From Candidatus Omnitrophota bacterium (lineage in GTDB: Bacteria; Omnitrophota; Gorgyraeia; Zapsychrales; Zapsychraceae): a DNA stretch of 64,000 nucleotides. The notes beneath the pieces are model-generated. The model did no database searches, was not told the DNA's origin, and was given only the letters and a program-made list of their open reading frames with translations. Below are positions 2,732 through 15,603 of this stretch, piece by piece (within the stretch, counting starts at the first letter, position 1; every line of letters starts with the position of its first letter). The stretch spans positions 72,171 through 136,170 of the forward strand of contig JACKFK010000008.1 in NCBI GenBank assembly GCA_020632515.1. The letters run 5' to 3'. The translations under genes and the position numbers were made by a program.

Positions 2732-4462
2732 ATGAAAAACAAAGAAATTGCTGAGCTATTTGAGAAAATGGGAACACTTCTCGAAATTAAGGGGGAGATT
2801 GTTTTTAAAACACGCGCGTATTTTAAAGCCGCGGAAAATATTAATAATTTGGCTGAAGATATTGAGACGGTTAAGAATGAAAAACGTTTGTCGGATATCC
2901 CGGGGATTGGCAAAACTCTACAAGAAAAGATTGTCGAGTATCTTGAGACAGGAAAACTCACAGCGTATGAAAAACTAACGAAAGAAATTCCGGAAAGTAT
3001 TCTGGATGTGATTAATATTCCTTCTGTTGGCCCGAAGAAAGCGAAGTTGTTTTTTGACAAATTAAAAATTAAGGATGTGCCAGGTTTGAGAAAGGCAGCA
3101 GAGTCAAAGGAAATCTTGCAGTTGGAAGGTATTAAAGAAAAGACTGTTGAAAATATTTTAAAAGGGATCAAAGTGGTGACAGAAGGACAGGCGCGTATGA
3201 ACCTGGGAACTGCCACGCGGGTGGCAGAGGAGCTTATCGCGCAGCTTCAGAAAAGGCCTGAAGTAAAATCAGTTTCTCCGGCGGGAAGTTTGCGTCGGGG
3301 AAAAGAGACGATTCGTGATATCGATATCTTGGTGGATTCAACGGACGCGAAAGTGACAATGGATTTCTTTTGTAAATTACCGCAGGTTAAAACTGTCTCC
3401 GCGCATGGTGAAACTAAGTCATCCATTTTAACCGAGAAGAATGTTCAGGTTGATCTGCGTATTTTAGATCATCATTGTTTTGGTGCAGGGCTTTTATATT
3501 TCACCGGATCAAAGAATTTTAATGTCAAATTGCGTCAGATCGCGATGAAAAACGATATGAAGGTCAGTGAGTATGGTATTTTTAGCGTTAAAGATAATAA
3601 GGAAAAGTTTTTAGCTGGAAAGACCGAAGCAGAATGTTTTAAAGCGTTAGGTATGCCTTTTATACCGCCGGAATTGCGAGAAGATATTGGAGAAGACCTG
3701 TTGTTTAAGAAAACAGGAGCTGTTAAGATTCCAAAATTAATTGAGCTTGGAGATATTAAAGGTGAACTGCATGTGCATTCTACTTGGTCGGATGGACACA
3801 ATACGATAGCTGAAATGGCTGACGCAGCGCAAAAAAGAGGTTATCAATATCTGGCGATCAGTGACCATTCTCCTAGATTAAAGGTCGCGCGAGGGGTGTC
3901 GGTCGAAGATTTGAAGAAGAAAAAGGCTGAAATTGAACAGCTTAATAAAAAGATGAAAAATTTCAGGATTCTTTTCGGTACGGAAGTAGAAATAGACAGC
4001 GATGGGAATTTAGATTACAATGATAGCGTATTAAGCGAATTTGACATAGTTGTGGCAGCTGTCCACAGCGGATTTGAGCAGGATGTTAAAAAACTTACCC
4101 AGCGAATTGTAAAAGCCTGCCAGCACAAGAGCGTTCATATCATTGCGCATCCGACAGGCGTTCATTTAGGTAAACGAGATCCTTATGCCCTTGACTTAAA
4201 GGAGGTTTGCAAAGCAGCGCGTGATCATAATGTTTTTCTTGAGATTAACGCCTTTCCTATTCGGTTGGATTTAAATTCAAAAAACGCCTTTTATGCGAAG
4301 AATCAGGGTGTTCACTTTGTGATCAATACAGATTCTCATAATGTTGATCATTTTAATCATTTGCGTTATGGGATTTCCGTTGCTCGACGGGCCTGGTTAA
4401 CAAAACAAGAGGTATTAAATTCATTGCCACTCAAAGAAATGCTTCAGCGGATAAAAAAATAA
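2732..4462 (+). CDS. polX: DNA polymerase/3'-5' exonuclease PolX (family X polymerase + PHP domain)
   Basis: N-terminal HhH and pol-beta-like nucleotidyltransferase core (GSLRRGKETIRDIDILV) plus a C-terminal PHP domain (ELHVHSTWSDGHNT ... INTDSH). Confidence 0.9.
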   Translation: MKNKEIAELFEKMGTLLEIKGEIVFKTRAYFKAAENINNLAEDIETVKNEKRLSDIPGIGKTLQEKIVEYLETGKLTAYEKLTKEIPESILDVINIPSVGPKKAKLFFDKLKIKDVPGLRKAAESKEILQLEGIKEKTVENILKGIKVVTEGQARMNLGTATRVAEELIAQLQKRPEVKSVSPAGSLRRGKETIRDIDILVDSTDAKVTMDFFCKLPQVKTVSAHGETKSSILTEKNVQVDLRILDHHCFGAGLLYFTGSKNFNVKLRQIAMKNDMKVSEYGIFSVKDNKEKFLAGKTEAECFKALGMPFIPPELREDIGEDLLFKKTGAVKIPKLIELGDIKGELHVHSTWSDGHNTIAEMADAAQKRGYQYLAISDHSPRLKVARGVSVEDLKKKKAEIEQLNKKMKNFRILFGTEVEIDSDGNLDYNDSVLSEFDIVVAAVHSGFEQDVKKLTQRIVKACQHKSVHIIAHPTGVHLGKRDPYALDLKEVCKAARDHNVFLEINAFPIRLDLNSKNAFYAKNQGVHFVINTDSHNVDHFNHLRYGISVARRAWLTKQEVLNSLPLKEMLQRIKK

Positions 4463-7790: not shown

Positions 7791-7852
7791 ATATTTCTGC
7801 TTGATTGATAGAAGAATTTTGTTATTATATTTCTATAAAAGGAATTGAAACT

Positions 7853-8689
7853 ATGGAAGTAAATATCCTCAATCAATCGCAATATTCAACTCTTCTTCAG
7901 GATATCCGCAGGCTTATTAAAGAAGGAAAAGAGCGGGCAGGGCGAGCCGCAGCCAATGAGTTGGTCAAAACCTATTGGGAGATTGGGCGACGTATTAATA
8001 GGGAACAAATGACGTTTCAAGCCGGTTATGCGGACTCAATTATTGAGGATTTGGCGGATGAGCTTCAAATTGACCGGTGGACATTAAAAAGAACCCTTCT
8101 TTTTTTTAATACTTATCCCGGTGGAGCCCCTAGGGGCTCAAATCTTAACTGGGCCCATTATAGAGAGTTGATAACCATTAATGATGATCAAGAGCGGCAA
8201 TGGTATGAGCGCCATGCACTTAAGCAACGTTTAACCAGAGATCAGCTTGTGAAGGCGATCAAAAAGAATGTTTATCAAGAGAAAACCCTCCTAAATAATT
8301 CAAATTTAATAAAATCTGATAAAATTATAAGACCTACGGAAGCAACGTATGTTTATCGGGCTTATGTGGTTCGGGTTATTAGTGCTGATCGGCTGCTTTT
8401 AAGGCTTGATTTAGGATTCCAAGTCTTGAAAGAACAAAGGATTCGTTTGGCCGATATTGAAGCGCCGGCAATGGATGATCCTAAAGGCCGCGAAGCTTAT
8501 GAGTATGTGTTAGGCAAATTAGTCCAATCACCAATGGTGGTTGTAAAAACAAGCAAGATTGATATTTATGGAAGATATTTAGCGTATCTTTTTTATTCAA
8601 CTAAGAAAATGCCGTTGGATATGGTCTTTGAAAAAGGGCAGTTTTTGAATCAGGAAATGGTAGATAACGGATTAGCCCATTTGGCGTAA
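7853..8689 (+). CDS. DUF1016 (YhcG) N-terminal domain fused to a staphylococcal-nuclease (SNase/thermonuclease)-like domain
   Basis: The N-terminal half matches the YhcG pattern (ELVKTYWEIGRRI ... NLNWAHYRELI ... ERQWYERHA). The C-terminal half matches the SNase fold (VVRVISADR..IRLADIEAPA..GREAYEYV..DIYGRYLAYLFY..NGLAHLA). ATG at 7853 is preferred over the in-frame TTG at 7805. Confidence 0.75.
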   Translation: MEVNILNQSQYSTLLQDIRRLIKEGKERAGRAAANELVKTYWEIGRRINREQMTFQAGYADSIIEDLADELQIDRWTLKRTLLFFNTYPGGAPRGSNLNWAHYRELITINDDQERQWYERHALKQRLTRDQLVKAIKKNVYQEKTLLNNSNLIKSDKIIRPTEATYVYRAYVVRVISADRLLLRLDLGFQVLKEQRIRLADIEAPAMDDPKGREAYEYVLGKLVQSPMVVVKTSKIDIYGRYLAYLFYSTKKMPLDMVFEKGQFLNQEMVDNGLAHLA

Positions 8690-10343: not shown

Positions 10344-13142
10344 ATGGCTAAGAAGTACGTATATTTTTTTGGCGGCGGAAAAGCCGAGGGAACAGCTCAA
10401 ATGAAAAATTTATTAGGTGGAAAAGGCGCTAATCTAGCTGAAATGGCTGGGCATAAGGATTTGCGACTGCCAGTTCCTCCGGGATTTACTATTACAACGG
10501 AAGTATGTACATATTATTATGAAAACAAAAAGAAATATCCTGCATCTTTAAAAGCAGAAGTTAATACAGCTATTAAAAAAGTTGAAAAAGTCATGGGAAA
10601 GAAGTTTGGCGATGTAAAGAATCCTTTGCTTGTTTCAGTAAGATCCGGAGCTAGAGTTTCTATGCCAGGAATGATGGAGACTGTTTTAAATGTTGGGTTA
10701 ACAGAAAAGACCTTACCCGGCTTAGCTGTTAAATTCGGCAGTGAGCGGTTTGCTTACGATGCTTATCGACGGTTAATTACAATGTATTCTGATGTTGTTA
10801 TGGAAAAATCTGCAGGAATTGAACCGGCTGAAGGTCAAGGCATCCGTGTGCAGTTAGATAAACTTTTATCGAAAAAGAAAAAAGAATGTGGTGTAAAAGT
10901 TGACTCGGAATTGACTGTTGAAGATTTAAAAAGTTTAATCGCGGAATATAAAGTTCGAATCAAAGATGTTTTAGGTAAACAATTTCCAGATGATCCTGAA
11001 CAGCAATTATGGGGCGCGATAACAGCTGTTTTTCAATCATGGAGTGGTAAGCGGGCGGTATCTTATCGTAAGATTGAAAATATTCCAGAGGAATGGGGAA
11101 CGGCTGTAAACGTTCAAAGTATGGCCTTTGGTAATACTGGTGAAAATTCTTCGACGGGTGTTGCTTTTACGCGTAATCCAGGAAATGGCGAAAATCATTT
11201 TTATGGAGAATACCTTGTCAATGCTCAAGGGGAAGACGTCGTTGCTGGGATCAGAACTCCGTCGCCGATTAATGAATATTCACAAAGTGAATTAAACAAA
11301 GACCTTAAAATTCTTGCCAATGAAAATCCAAAGATCTACAAACAATTAGAGGATATTCGTAAGCGTTTAGAAAAACATTATAAAGATATGCAGGATATTG
11401 AATTTACCGTTGAAGAGGGTGTGCTTTTCATGTTGCAGTGTCGCAGCGGAAAAAGAAATGGTCCTGCAGCTGTTCGTATGGCTGTTGATATGGTTAAAGA
11501 GAAATTGATTGATAAAGAAACGGCTGTTACACGAGTAACGCCTGCGCAGTTGGATGAATTGTTGCATCCGATTATTGATCCGGTGGAAGAAAAGGTTGCT
11601 AAATTTTTAGGAAAAGGTTTGCCAGCAGGGCCCGGCGGGGCAAGCGGGCAGATTGTCTTTACCTCCGATGACGCTGTTAAGTGGGCAAAGGAAAAAAAGC
11701 AAGTTATTTTAGTTCGTGATGAGACAAATCCTGAAGATGTTGAGGGGATGCGGGCGTCACAAGCAATTCTTACCGCTCGCGGCGGAATGACATCGCATGC
11801 GGCTTTAGTTGCGCGGGGCTGGGGAAAATGTTGTATTGTTGGTTGTTCTGATATTGAGATTGATTTTTCTGACAGAACAATGAATATAGGATCAAACCGG
11901 TTAAAAGAAGGTGATTGGATCACGCTAAACGGGACAAAAGGAACTTTTTATGAAACTCGTTTACCTATGATTGACGCGTCGGAAGAAAATACATATTTTC
12001 AAGAATTTTTGAAAATATGTGATTCAGTCCGTACTTTAAATATTCGAACTAATTGTGATACGCCTGAAGATGCGGTTAAGGCGCGAACATTTGGTGCTGA
12101 AGGAATTGGGCTCTTTAGAACGGAACACATGTTTTATGGAAAACATTCAGAAGAGCCATTGTTCATTTTACGAAAAATGATTATGTCTAAAGATGTAGCT
12201 GAGCGACGGCACGCTTTAGATGAATTATTTCCTCATGTTAAAAGCGATATTAAAGGAACTTTAGAAGCGATGAGCGGATATCCTGTAACTATTCGTTTGT
12301 TAGATCCGCCATTGCATGAATTTGTTCCTCATAAAAAAGAAGCATTAGATAATCTAGCTAAAAGTTTAGGTATTAATGCTGAACAATTAGAAAAACGAAC
12401 AGCTGCGTTACATGAAAGTAATCCGATGATGGGGCATCGCGGGGTGCGCTTGGGCGTGACTTTTCCTGAGATTACCGAGATGCAAGTGAGGGCGATTCTG
12501 GAAGCCACTGCGGAGCTTTTGAAAAATGGAAAGAAAATTTATCCGGAAATTATGGTTCCGGTTATTTGTTCCGTTAATGAATTGAAAACGCAGAAAAAGA
12601 TTGTAGCACGTGTTTATGAAGAAGTTTTAAAGAAGTATAATATGAAAAAATTCTTTTACATGTTTGGAACGATGATTGAAATCCCTCGAGCGGCTTTAAC
12701 AGCTGACCAAATCGCGGAAGAAGCAGAGTTCTTCTCTTTCGGAACCAATGATTTAACTCAGATGAGTTTTGGTTTTTCACGTGATGATATTGGTGGATTC
12801 CTTCCAGATTATTTAGAAAATAATATCTTGCCGGAAGATCCGTTTCAAAGTATTGATGAAAATGGTGTTGGTCAGTTGATTGATATTGGAGTTAAACGAG
12901 GACGCCAAGCGCGATCCAATTTAAAGATTGGTATATGTGGAGAGCATGGCGGAGATCCGGCATCAATCGCATTTTGCCAGCAAGTAGGAATGGATTATGT
13001 TAGTTGTTCACCTTATCGCGTTCCGATTGCGCGTTTAGCTGCGGCTCAATCAGCGTTAAAATTAAAGGGAACTACTAAAAAGGGTAATACTACAAAGAAA
13101 AAAGCAGTTAAGAAAACTAGCGTCAAAGCAAAGAAAAGATAA
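10344..13142 (+). CDS. ppdK: pyruvate, phosphate dikinase (with a Lys-rich C-terminal tail)
   Basis: Full-length PPDK architecture: N-terminal ATP-grasp (GGKGANLAEM), phospho-His domain (GGMTSHAALVARGWGK) and PEP/pyruvate TIM barrel (FFSFGTNDLTQM; CGEHGGDP). Confidence 0.95.
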   Translation: MAKKYVYFFGGGKAEGTAQMKNLLGGKGANLAEMAGHKDLRLPVPPGFTITTEVCTYYYENKKKYPASLKAEVNTAIKKVEKVMGKKFGDVKNPLLVSVRSGARVSMPGMMETVLNVGLTEKTLPGLAVKFGSERFAYDAYRRLITMYSDVVMEKSAGIEPAEGQGIRVQLDKLLSKKKKECGVKVDSELTVEDLKSLIAEYKVRIKDVLGKQFPDDPEQQLWGAITAVFQSWSGKRAVSYRKIENIPEEWGTAVNVQSMAFGNTGENSSTGVAFTRNPGNGENHFYGEYLVNAQGEDVVAGIRTPSPINEYSQSELNKDLKILANENPKIYKQLEDIRKRLEKHYKDMQDIEFTVEEGVLFMLQCRSGKRNGPAAVRMAVDMVKEKLIDKETAVTRVTPAQLDELLHPIIDPVEEKVAKFLGKGLPAGPGGASGQIVFTSDDAVKWAKEKKQVILVRDETNPEDVEGMRASQAILTARGGMTSHAALVARGWGKCCIVGCSDIEIDFSDRTMNIGSNRLKEGDWITLNGTKGTFYETRLPMIDASEENTYFQEFLKICDSVRTLNIRTNCDTPEDAVKARTFGAEGIGLFRTEHMFYGKHSEEPLFILRKMIMSKDVAERRHALDELFPHVKSDIKGTLEAMSGYPVTIRLLDPPLHEFVPHKKEALDNLAKSLGINAEQLEKRTAALHESNPMMGHRGVRLGVTFPEITEMQVRAILEATAELLKNGKKIYPEIMVPVICSVNELKTQKKIVARVYEEVLKKYNMKKFFYMFGTMIEIPRAALTADQIAEEAEFFSFGTNDLTQMSFGFSRDDIGGFLPDYLENNILPEDPFQSIDENGVGQLIDIGVKRGRQARSNLKIGICGEHGGDPASIAFCQQVGMDYVSCSPYRVPIARLAAAQSALKLKGTTKKGNTTKKKAVKKTSVKAKKR

Positions 13143-13311: not shown

Positions 13312-14139
13312 ATGGACCCAATTAAAGCTTATTTAAAAGATGTACGGCCTATCCCGCTTTTAACAGCAGATGAAGAAATCGATCTTGCTAAGAAAGTGAA
13401 AAAAGGAGATCGAGAAGCGCGGGATAAGATGATTCGATCTAATCTTAGATTGGTAATTAGTATTGCGAAAAGGTATGTCAATTTAGGGGTTCCTTTAAGT
13501 GATTTAATCGAAGAAGGAAATATCGGATTAATGAAGAGTGTTGAGAAATTTGATCCGACGAAAGGGTTTCGTTTTTCAACGTATTCAGCTTGGTGGATTA
13601 AACAGGGAATTTCCCGGGCAATAATTGATCAGGGAAAAATGATTCGTGTTCCTGTGTATATGAATGAAGAGATTCTCAAATATAAGAAAATGGTTGAGAA
13701 ACTAACTCATAAGCTTAAACGAAAACCCCGGCAGGGCGAAGTGGCAAAAAAGATGAAGATTCCTGTAGATAAGGTAAGGGATCTTGAGAATTCAATCGCT
13801 AAGATGTCAAGTCTTGACGCTCCGATCGGAGATGTGGGTGACGGTCAAGTTAAAGACATTATTGAAGATCAGAATATTGCTAGTCCCGATGAGCAACTGG
13901 AAATTTTCTTTAATAAAGAACGGGCTATGGGATTTTTGGAGATGTTGAACGAGCGCGAGCGTAAAATTTTGGAATTACGTTATGGTCTTACGGATGGAAC
14001 ATCGAGGACATTAGCGGAAATTGCAAAAATTCTTGGCGTCTCGAGAGAACGTGTCCGGCAGATTGAGTCAGCCACTATTAAGAAAATTCGACAAATTATC
14101 AGTCAAAAAGAAAAGAATAAAGAAAAAGAACGTGTCTAG
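13312..14139 (+). CDS. RNA polymerase sigma factor, sigma-70 family (RpoD/RpoS-like, lacks region 1.1)
   Basis: Region 1.2 (DPIKAYLKDVRPIPLLT), region 2 (NLRLVISIAKRY..EGNIGLMKSVEKFD..FSTYSAWWIKQ), region 3, and region 4 (ILELRYGL..RTLAEIAKILGVSRERVRQIE). Confidence 0.9.
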   Translation: MDPIKAYLKDVRPIPLLTADEEIDLAKKVKKGDREARDKMIRSNLRLVISIAKRYVNLGVPLSDLIEEGNIGLMKSVEKFDPTKGFRFSTYSAWWIKQGISRAIIDQGKMIRVPVYMNEEILKYKKMVEKLTHKLKRKPRQGEVAKKMKIPVDKVRDLENSIAKMSSLDAPIGDVGDGQVKDIIEDQNIASPDEQLEIFFNKERAMGFLEMLNERERKILELRYGLTDGTSRTLAEIAKILGVSRERVRQIESATIKKIRQIISQKEKNKEKERV

Positions 14140-14986
14140 TCGAAAGCGTAAACCGACTTTTGTATTAGTTATTCCCCGTTTCGAAGATATTTTTCACTCC
14201 TTTTATGCAACAGAAGTGATTCGAGGAGTCAGTCTTTCTGCCAGCCGCCTGAATGCGGATTTTCTTATTCACATTACAGATCGAACAAATCACCGCGGCT
14301 GGCTTGATTCCACATTAATGGATAAAGATTATATCGATGGAATTATCTTTGCTGATATTGACAATGATGTAAATATTGTTAAGAAAGCGATCCGTCGCGG
14401 GGTTCCTTGTATTGTTCTCAACAATTTATTGGACGAACCTATTAATTTCGTTGCCATGGATAATGAAAAGGCTGCGTGTGAAGTTATTGAATTCTTAATT
14501 AGTCTTGGCCATGAGAAAATTGCGACTATATGTGGCGATGTTTCTACACAGGCAGGATTAATGCGTTTAGAAGGATATCAGAAAACCCTTTTAAAATATA
14601 AGCTAAATGTTCCCAGAAATTATATTACATTCGGAGAATTCTTGCGCACGCCAGCGCGAGCCGCAGCTAAAAAGCTATTGTCATTAAAGGCAAGGCCGAC
14701 CGCGATTTTTGCTGCTTCGGATGTTATGGCCTTGGAATTGATGGATGTGGCCCGGGAAATGAAAATTAAAATTCCTGAAGAGTTATCGGTGATTGGCTTT
14801 GATGATAATCCATTGAGCTTAACAAATTCGATAAAGTTAACCACGGTGGCTCAACCAATTGTTGAAATGGGACGGTTAGGTGCTGAGAATTTAAGTTTAA
14901 TTAGTCGGGGGAAAGCGGGTTTGCCGGTAAAGGTGGTTCTTCCAACAAAGTTATTAAAAGGGGATTCAACGGCTAAGCTTTCTTAA
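14132..14986 (+). CDS. LacI-family periplasmic-binding-fold (Peripla_BP) ligand-binding domain protein lacking the N-terminal HTH
   Basis: The core begins immediately (TFVLVIPRFEDIFHSFYATEVIRG) and runs through typical LacI-core motifs (IFAASDVMALELMDVARE..IPEELSVIGFDD..LTTVAQP). The only plausible start is GTG 14132, overlapping the sigma stop as GTGTCTAG. The ATG at 14021 lies inside the sigma gene. Confidence 0.75.
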   Translation: MSSRKRKPTFVLVIPRFEDIFHSFYATEVIRGVSLSASRLNADFLIHITDRTNHRGWLDSTLMDKDYIDGIIFADIDNDVNIVKKAIRRGVPCIVLNNLLDEPINFVAMDNEKAACEVIEFLISLGHEKIATICGDVSTQAGLMRLEGYQKTLLKYKLNVPRNYITFGEFLRTPARAAAKKLLSLKARPTAIFAASDVMALELMDVAREMKIKIPEELSVIGFDDNPLSLTNSIKLTTVAQPIVEMGRLGAENLSLISRGKAGLPVKVVLPTKLLKGDSTAKLS

Positions 14987-15010: not shown

Positions 15011-15544
15011 ATGAAAGAGGCTTTAAAGAAAAGTGATTTAAGAAATAGAATACGAGACATTCCTGACTTCCCTAAAGAAGGAATTATTTTTAAAGATATA
15101 ACAACTTTATTGAAAGACAAAGCTGCTTTTAAGAAATCCATAGATATATTGGCAAAGAAATTTCGAAAAGAAGATATTGAATATGTTGTAGGAGTTGAGG
15201 CGAGAGGATTTATTTTTGGCGCAGCTTTGGCGTATAAGCTCGGGGTGGGATTCATCCCTGTCCGTAAAAAAGGAAAACTTCCTTCAAAAACAAAAAGTAT
15301 TACCTATGAGTTGGAATATGGTACGGATAGTCTTGAAATTCATGAAGATGCGTTGAATCCTCAAGCAAGGGTATTAATTGTTGATGATTTGCTGGCGACG
15401 GGAGGGACAATTAAAGCGGTTTCTGATTTAGTAAAAAATCAGAAAGCTGTAATTGCTGGAGTTGCCTTTATTGTTGAATTAGGTTTTCTTAAAGGCAAAG
15501 AGAAATTAAAAGATTTAGATGTTTATTCGGTTATAAAATATTAA
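15011..15544 (+). CDS. apt: adenine phosphoribosyltransferase
   Basis: IRDIPDFPKEGIIFKDIT and the PRPP motif VLIVDDLLATGGT. 177 aa. Confidence 0.93.
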   Translation: MKEALKKSDLRNRIRDIPDFPKEGIIFKDITTLLKDKAAFKKSIDILAKKFRKEDIEYVVGVEARGFIFGAALAYKLGVGFIPVRKKGKLPSKTKSITYELEYGTDSLEIHEDALNPQARVLIVDDLLATGGTIKAVSDLVKNQKAVIAGVAFIVELGFLKGKEKLKDLDVYSVIKY

Positions 15545-15568: not shown

Positions 15569-15603
15569 AATCTCCCTAGAATTCTTTAGGGAGATTCATT
15601 TTT
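15569..15603 (+). terminator. Rho-independent terminator after apt
   Basis: ATCTCCCTA / TAGGGAGAT 9-bp stem with an 8-nt loop, followed by TCATTTTT. Confidence 0.7.

Follow-up and report, generated by a model that had tools for sequence, protein, structure and literature searches.

LacI-family proteins are textbook one-component regulators that carry a sensor and a DNA-binding head in one chain. Repressors of the LacI/GalR type, among them CelR (5YSZ), CcpA, RbsR, CytR, PurR and LacI itself, join a helix-turn-helix (HTH) headpiece and a hinge helix to a ligand-binding core. The gene described here lies in a 64,000-nucleotide stretch of a Candidatus Omnitrophota genome (contig JACKFK010000008.1), called the window hereafter, and encodes such a core, with the same two-subdomain fold, motifs and R/D/Q pocket residues. 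However, it lacks both headpiece and hinge, its chain opening 8 residues ahead of the first strand of the core, and it cannot bind operators in the manner of the family. It directly follows a gene for a sigma-70 factor, and this two-gene arrangement is real and conserved in a clade of Candidatus Omnitrophota. What is new here is a headless LacI core fixed in a sigma-containing housekeeping operon and not a demonstrated regulatory system.

The sensor core of the family is known to work with other outputs. AraR is built from a GntR-type winged HTH and a LacI core, and XylR from a LacI-like core and an AraC-type HTH. The core is therefore portable and can serve a DNA-binding partner that is not of the LacI type, and the AraR core (3TB6) was among the structural matches of the Omnitrophota protein. 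In AraR and XylR, however, the partner is covalently fused, whereas no fusion was found for the sigma-linked core in any locus or match and its partner would be non-covalent. Protein contacts offer a second precedent, since the CcpA core contacts HPr-Ser-P and the CytR core contacts CRP. Both show that a LacI-type core can signal through a protein interface, although both proteins keep their HTH and act on DNA. The CcpA-HPr complexes 3OQM and 1RZR were among the top Foldseek matches of the core. In CcpA, R303 and K307 on helix IX bind the phosphorylated Ser46 of HPr. In the phmmer alignment to 2FEP, the segment 'amrlltk' faces 'gaenlsl' of the core, which puts E252 in the place of R303 and L256 in that of K307. 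Binding of HPr-Ser-P in the CcpA fashion was rejected because these contact residues are not conserved.

On the side of the sigma factors, Rsd and T4 AsiA act on region 4 of sigma-70 while Crl and RssB act on RpoS, and co-transcription with coupling is typical of sigma/anti-sigma pairs. The Omnitrophota locus has the same layout, with a putative regulator gene placed directly after a sigma gene and coupled to it by an overlap, the target here being a group 1/2 sigma. It departs from the known anti-sigma and sigma-binding proteins in that the core resembles them neither in sequence nor in fold, that its pairing with the sigma factor is not obligatory and that binding is hypothetical in this case. 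In the literature searched, no account of HTH-less LacI proteins or of sigma regulation in Omnitrophota was found, and public annotation of the headless cores reads only 'substrate-binding domain-containing protein'.

The two genes and their junction comprise four features.

13312..14139, forward strand: sigma-70 family factor of 275 residues, from ATG 13312 to TAG 14137-14139 (Pfam, NCBIfam, PDB sequence matches).
14132..14986, forward strand: HTH-less LacI-family effector-binding core of 284 residues, from GTG 14132 to TAA 14984-14986 (Pfam, NCBIfam, AlphaFold2, Foldseek).
14132..14139, forward strand: 8-nt overlap GTGTCTAG, which holds the GTG start of the core and the TAG stop of the sigma gene (translational-coupling junction).
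14141..14158, forward strand: codons of the basic N-terminal tail R4-K5-R6-K7-P8-T9 of the core (invariant columns; alignment with full-length relatives).

An earlier note on this DNA, written from the sequence alone, had given the same overlap and the same GTG start for a 284-residue protein, and had described it as a complete LacI core devoid of HTH and hinge; all of this was confirmed. The core matches Peripla_BP_3 (1e-29), Peripla_BP_1 (1.6e-15) and Peripla_BP_4 in Pfam, and the LacI HTH (PF00356) is absent from its open reading frame (ORF). Its NCBIfam alignment begins at position 66 of the CytR model and at position 58 of the CcpA model, just past HTH and hinge, and its best PDB sequence matches, CelR 5YSZ and CcpA, are aligned from residue ~58-83 on. 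Upstream of the start, the frame encodes the C-terminus of the sigma factor and no HTH. The start itself is supported by the N-termini of the orthologues, which read M-x-x-(R/K)-K-R-K-x-T-F-V-L-V-I-P and all begin 8-9 residues ahead of the conserved TFVLVIP strand. This shared N-terminus fixes the start codon at GTG 14132, and NCBI's own call for the source metagenome-assembled genome gives the same 284-residue protein (P0001). Within the tail, K5-R6-K7 is invariant, as is T9 among the closer orthologues. The stretch R4-T9 reads, by its alignment with full-length relatives, as what is left of the linker between hinge and core.

An AlphaFold2 model built on an alignment of 54 orthologues reached a predicted local distance difference test (pLDDT) score of 89.7 and a predicted template-modelling (pTM) score of 0.86. 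Foldseek superposed it on the cores of CelR, CcpA, RbsR and LacI with template-modelling scores of 0.84-0.90 and E-values of 1e-24 to 1e-20. The core is a soluble, cytoplasmic, stand-alone protein with the fold of type-I periplasmic-binding proteins. The N-terminus MSSRKRKPTFV has no hydrophobic segment and therefore no signal peptide, and a periplasmic sugar-binding protein of the RbsB type was rejected on this ground and on the score of the RbsB model (30.6 bits against a cut-off of 337).

At least 120 core orthologues share 69-77% identity and measure 281-341 residues, and none of them carries an HTH or a sigma domain. About 90 of the 284 columns are invariant across 54 sequences. Between species-level genomes, the identity of the core is 59-77%, while that of the pyruvate phosphate dikinase (PPDK) encoded upstream falls as low as 48%. 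The predicted effector-pocket positions Y25, N97, R145, F170, S196, D224 and Q241 are invariant in 57 orthologues and hold the same residues as in the nearest full-length LacI relatives. R145, D224, Q241, F170 and N97 are the counterparts of LacI R197, D274, Q291, W220 and D149. The usual dimer-interface elements and the LacI family motifs are also kept. With its pocket residues kept and a confident model of the LacI-core type, the protein has the features of a functional LacI-type sensor with an intact predicted pocket for an effector of the sugar kind, and not those of a remnant.

Classical repression by this protein does not appear feasible, since it has no DNA-binding domain in cis and no gene for a LacI-type HTH lies in its vicinity. 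A hidden Markov model (HMM) of the LacI headpiece had no match when the window and ~85 related loci were translated in six frames, while a Streptomyces control locus was matched. A split repressor with a separate HTH encoded in the vicinity was rejected on this basis.

The sigma ORF carries regions 1.2, 2, 3 and 4 of the Sigma70 families of Pfam (r1_2, r2, r3, r4), all above their cut-offs. In NCBIfam, it scores 297.5 bits with RpoS (cut-off 378.7), 296.7 with RpoD (572) and 267 with RpoD_Cterm (354), and its best PDB sequence matches are SigA of Firmicutes (254 bits), followed by RpoS (217) and RpoD (212). Region 1.1 is missing, as the protein starts at region 1.2 and aligns from SigA residue 97. 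The segments recognizing the -10 and -35 elements are canonical, with an FSTYSAWWIKQ motif and an SRERVRQIE segment that align with SigA. Among at least 120 closest orthologues, identity is 77-88% and length 269-327 residues; their automatic NCBI/JGI names are RpoD/SigA, primary sigma factor or sigma-70 family. By these matches it is a short, region-1.1-less factor of group 1/2 type that falls under the RpoD equivalog cut-offs. No second sigma-70 gene was found within the 64-kb window. The sigma query also recovered a gammaproteobacterial-type surE-nlpD-rpoS locus (L125, 3501-3932). The RpoS of this locus shares 54% identity with the Omnitrophota sigma across the N-terminal 144 residues, which places the latter close to group-2 factors.

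Conservation of the pair was followed in 42 Omnitrophota loci from species-level genomes, in loci obtained by exact-protein look-up and in 79 metagenome loci anchored on the sigma gene. The core gene stands directly downstream of the sigma gene in all 42 core-carrying Omnitrophota genome loci. It is also present in 19 of the 21 sigma-anchored metagenome loci whose sigma is at least 75% identical and which have enough downstream sequence. The order ppdK-sigma-core-apt was found in 67 of 72 sigma-bearing loci. The earlier note had proposed to look elsewhere for sigma genes adjacent or fused to a Peripla_BP_3 protein; adjacency is thus conserved in the loci surveyed, and fusion was not encountered. 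The same note had also envisaged that orthologous loci might contain an ordinary full-length LacI gene with no conserved adjacency to sigma. This is not the case, since the orthologues are headless and keep the position in those 67 loci.

The neighbours with which the pair is kept, and the signal that follows them, are these.

10344..13142, forward strand: ppdK, pyruvate phosphate dikinase, the kept upstream neighbour of the sigma gene.
15011..15544, forward strand: apt, of the adenine phosphoribosyltransferase type, the kept downstream neighbour of the core gene.
15569..15596, forward strand: terminator-like hairpin and T-run after apt (consensus scan only).

In the window, the local order is glyS-ppdK-sigma-core-apt on one strand. 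No terminator-like site was found by consensus scan between sigma, core and apt, which probably form one transcription unit. Most likely the core gene is co-transcribed with sigma and apt, and its translation is coupled to the sigma stop codon. Rfam recognized two tRNAs only in the whole window and no regulatory RNA in the 170 nt upstream of the sigma gene, where the promoter scan did no better than on shuffled sequences.

The junction was surveyed in ~50 related Omnitrophota loci carrying both genes. Sixteen loci have an overlap of 8 nt, 13 one of 11 nt, six one of 4 nt and four one of 17 nt. The other junctions are overlaps of 14, 23 or 29 nt, one 0-nt in-frame TAA-ATG (L014) and spacers of 1-68 nt, of which the one in L017 has 68 nt and the one in L019 has 19 nt. 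The two genes thus overlap in ~84% of 50 loci. The median gap is ~50 nt from ppdK to sigma and ~19 nt from core to apt, so that the sigma-core junction is the tightest of the block. In L017 (JANQMA010000017.1, ~3930-4000 in locus coordinates), a GC-rich palindromic insert, GTGGTCTGTGCTCTGTGGTCTGTGATCAGACCACGGACCACGGGCCACGGACCAC, takes the place of the overlap; it could be a hairpin or a small repeat element. Nearly all large ORFs of the window are on the forward strand and their overlaps are often of 4, 8 or 11 nt; the source genome is very tightly packed.

The relatives of the core help to see where it comes from. In a tree of the best representatives, the sigma-linked cores form one clade down to 55% identity, and the protein at that limit (P0121) has the same synteny. 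The sister of this clade is made of full-length, HTH-bearing LacI regulators at ~40% identity, and the other HTH-less proteins branch apart. Four full-length Omnitrophota regulators of the same subfamily (P0275, P0128, P0136 and P0126) are 36-42% identical to the core. One of them, P0126 (39%), is encoded at 6001-7062 of L137 between tilS and ftsH-folP-cdaA, that is in a housekeeping array and not in a sugar-catabolic operon, which is unusual for the LacI family. The earlier note held HTH-less cores to be rare. This did not stand, since the N-terminal ~55 residues are missing from about a dozen of the ~80 full-coverage cluster representatives closest to the core. Mis-called starts were rejected for the three such paralogues that were checked, whose upstream DNA encodes no HTH in any of the three frames. 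Loss of the head thus appears recurrent in the subfamily of the core, having occurred several times independently according to the tree.

Lacking a headpiece in cis or in its vicinity, the core would act by ligand binding alone or through a protein partner. A partner is plausible in view of the CcpA/HPr-Ser-P and CytR/CRP precedents, and the sigma factor or its holoenzyme is the leading candidate because the position of the core directly after sigma is conserved. In the proposed mechanism, a small metabolite would bind in the pocket of the core and change one of its protein-protein contacts, as happens in the cores of CcpA and CytR. The co-expressed sigma factor or the holoenzyme would be the leading single candidate for this contact, and the core would then be a ligand-dependent modulator of transcription initiation. 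That the core is a ligand-responsive regulator working through some protein partner has nearly an even chance of being right. The best explanation as a whole, namely a conserved headless core that works as a ligand-responsive regulator via protein contact with sigma as leading candidate, is put forward tentatively and stands somewhat below an even chance.

LacI-type sensing without a head, kept under strong selection across a candidate phylum and behind an RpoD-like sigma gene, would be of interest in several respects. Omnitrophota are not culturable, and their regulatory repertoires are small. Signalling of the core through a partner, above all through sigma, would represent a new way of coupling metabolite sensing to transcription and would be informative for this phylum. 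If sigma is indeed the partner, global transcription initiation would be under direct small-molecule control by a LacI-type sensor. The core would then belong to a new class of sigma regulators and give the LacI fold a new mode of output, and the remaining HTH-less paralogues could share this partner in trans. Even with a partner other than sigma, the headless family would be a natural test case for what a LacI core does away from DNA.

Several observations weigh against a dedicated sigma partner. Co-occurrence is not obligatory, as orthologous sigma genes without the core were found in five loci. L062 (sigma 81% identical) and L073 (76%) have the order ppdK-sigma-apt, and in L077, L078 and L122, whose sigma is 57% identical, sigma is followed by apt. 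In L073, L077 and L122, the end of the sigma gene even runs 8 or 4 nt into apt, so that coupling to the next gene appears to be a property of the 3' end of the sigma gene. Overlap as such is ordinary in the window, where 14 of 46 co-directional ORF pairs (30%) overlap, several by 8 or 11 nt. The five-gene block is moreover syntenic as a whole, and the adjacency of sigma and core may be inherited and not selected. Where the sigma sequence is constant among core-bearing lineages but differs in core-less ones, the changes are I/V/L swaps only, and Pfam detects no similarity of the core to any known anti-sigma domain. The three headless paralogues located on DNA are also found in other company. 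P0122 (L049, 5001-5855; 47% identity) lies between rubrerythrin and HAD hydrolase genes, after GH57; P0274 (L135, 2479-3345; 40%), with an Omnitrophota label, is flanked by an HhH-GPD glycosylase and an MBL-fold hydrolase; and P0131 (L136, 4001-4831; 38%) follows an M48 gene and precedes two ABC permeases, HAD and GH130 genes. None of the three adjoins a sigma gene.

Finally, mirror-tree correlations between distance matrices were highest for core-apt (0.67), followed by sigma-core (0.47) and sigma-apt (0.21). The sigma-core value (partial 0.46, p = 0.001) is below that of core-apt and gives no sign of pair-specific co-evolution.

A neighbour-joining tree of the sigma factors places the 57% group as outgroup and nests L062 and L073 within the core-bearing clade. 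A core-less outgroup combined with nested losses points to a single insertion of the core gene between sigma and apt, near the base of the large clade. According to the same tree, it appears to have been lost or relocated at least twice later on. The lineages without it keep sigma, and the core would thus be dispensable for the sigma factor. In the other lineages, the conservation of its sequence indicates that the headless gene, once fixed between the RpoD/SigA-like sigma gene and apt, has since been under strong purifying selection. Taken together, the core-less lineages, the coupling of sigma to apt, the headless paralogues elsewhere and the lack of pair-specific co-evolution make sigma specifically a rather unlikely partner, though a possible one. 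The narrower proposal of a sigma or holoenzyme partner gated by a metabolite of the sugar or nucleoside type, acting as anti-sigma or co-factor, is to be regarded as doubtful.

The same observations also suit another explanation, possible but itself unlikely, in which the core is a stand-alone metabolite binder with no link to sigma and owes its position to a historical accident of insertion in a packed housekeeping operon. It might be a cytoplasmic binder of sugars or nucleosides, or a regulatory subunit of an enzyme such as PPDK or adenine phosphoribosyltransferase, both of which handle adenosine monophosphate and pyrophosphate. Core-less lineages with the same sigma coupled to apt, headless paralogues next to metabolic genes, gene overlaps common in the source genome and core distances that follow apt more than sigma are all in line with it, as is the tilS-LacI-ftsH-folP-cdaA array in which a full-length relative is found. 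On the other hand, we know of no LacI-family core that serves as an enzyme subunit, and the junction of sigma with core is both closer and better conserved than that between core and apt. Besides, the strong core-apt correlation may reflect higher and more clock-like divergence, the mean distances being 0.44 and 0.40 for these two proteins as compared with 0.29 for sigma.

A third possibility, quite improbable, is that the core is a dominant-negative or modulatory partner that forms heterodimers with full-length LacI repressors and tunes operator binding by leaving them with one headpiece. The retained dimer-interface elements and family motifs and the presence of full-length regulators of the same subfamily in Omnitrophota are consistent with this, and a generic role of headless partner would explain the repeated independent loss of the HTH. 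However, the nearest full-length relatives are only ~40% identical, and we know of no established mechanism by which LacI paralogues as distant as this form heterodimers. No full-length LacI gene was found in the window or in the ~85 related loci, and the fixed position after sigma would be left unexplained.

A decaying, functionless remnant of a truncated lacI-family gene is very improbable: although the core lacks the domain for the canonical function of the family and was apparently lost at least twice, its ORF is intact in every locus, it is better conserved than the most divergent PPDK, its pocket and many surface positions are invariant and its fold is predicted with confidence.

That the two ORFs are one gene, split by a 1-nt error or read through by a programmed frameshift or transcriptional slippage, is next to impossible. 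Only the local look of the window speaks for it, as the core ORF is in the +1 frame relative to sigma, its frame is open upstream from 14021 and the junction lies in an A-rich tract whose A-runs do not exceed 5 nt. Across the ~50 junctions, all three frame offsets (0, +1 and +2) occur and a stop codon ends sigma every time, including in L014 with its TAA-ATG and in L017 and L019 with their spacers. A variable frame with a constant stop means that neither a 1-base error nor a programmed +1 shift nor slippage is a conserved feature. No sigma-core fusion was found among the 120 closest core orthologues, the 120 closest sigma orthologues or the best 150 representatives of an exhaustive HMMER search, and the homopolymer error or fusion that the earlier note had offered as an alternative is refuted. 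The HMMER search did give some long matches, either tandem LacI proteins or a fusion with a cytidylate-kinase-like part. In the latter (P0260, 498 residues), an HTH-less LacI-type core follows an N-terminal P-loop domain of the cytidylate-kinase-like type (PF13189), a further non-DNA-binding architecture for the LacI sensor core.

Some variation was also noted around the pair. At the ppdK position of loci L001-L080, PPDK falls in two identity classes relative to that of the window, 48-54% or 74-83%. On the sigma tree the two classes are intermixed, and even sister lineages may differ in class, which suggests either in-situ replacement or two ancient alleles. Upstream of glyS, positions 7805-8689 of the window hold an ORF with a DUF1016 N-terminal domain and a staphylococcal-nuclease-like domain. 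At this site, L001 and L004, the two related loci with readable upstream genes, carry a lipid A acyltransferase gene, and the ORF of the window may be a local insertion.

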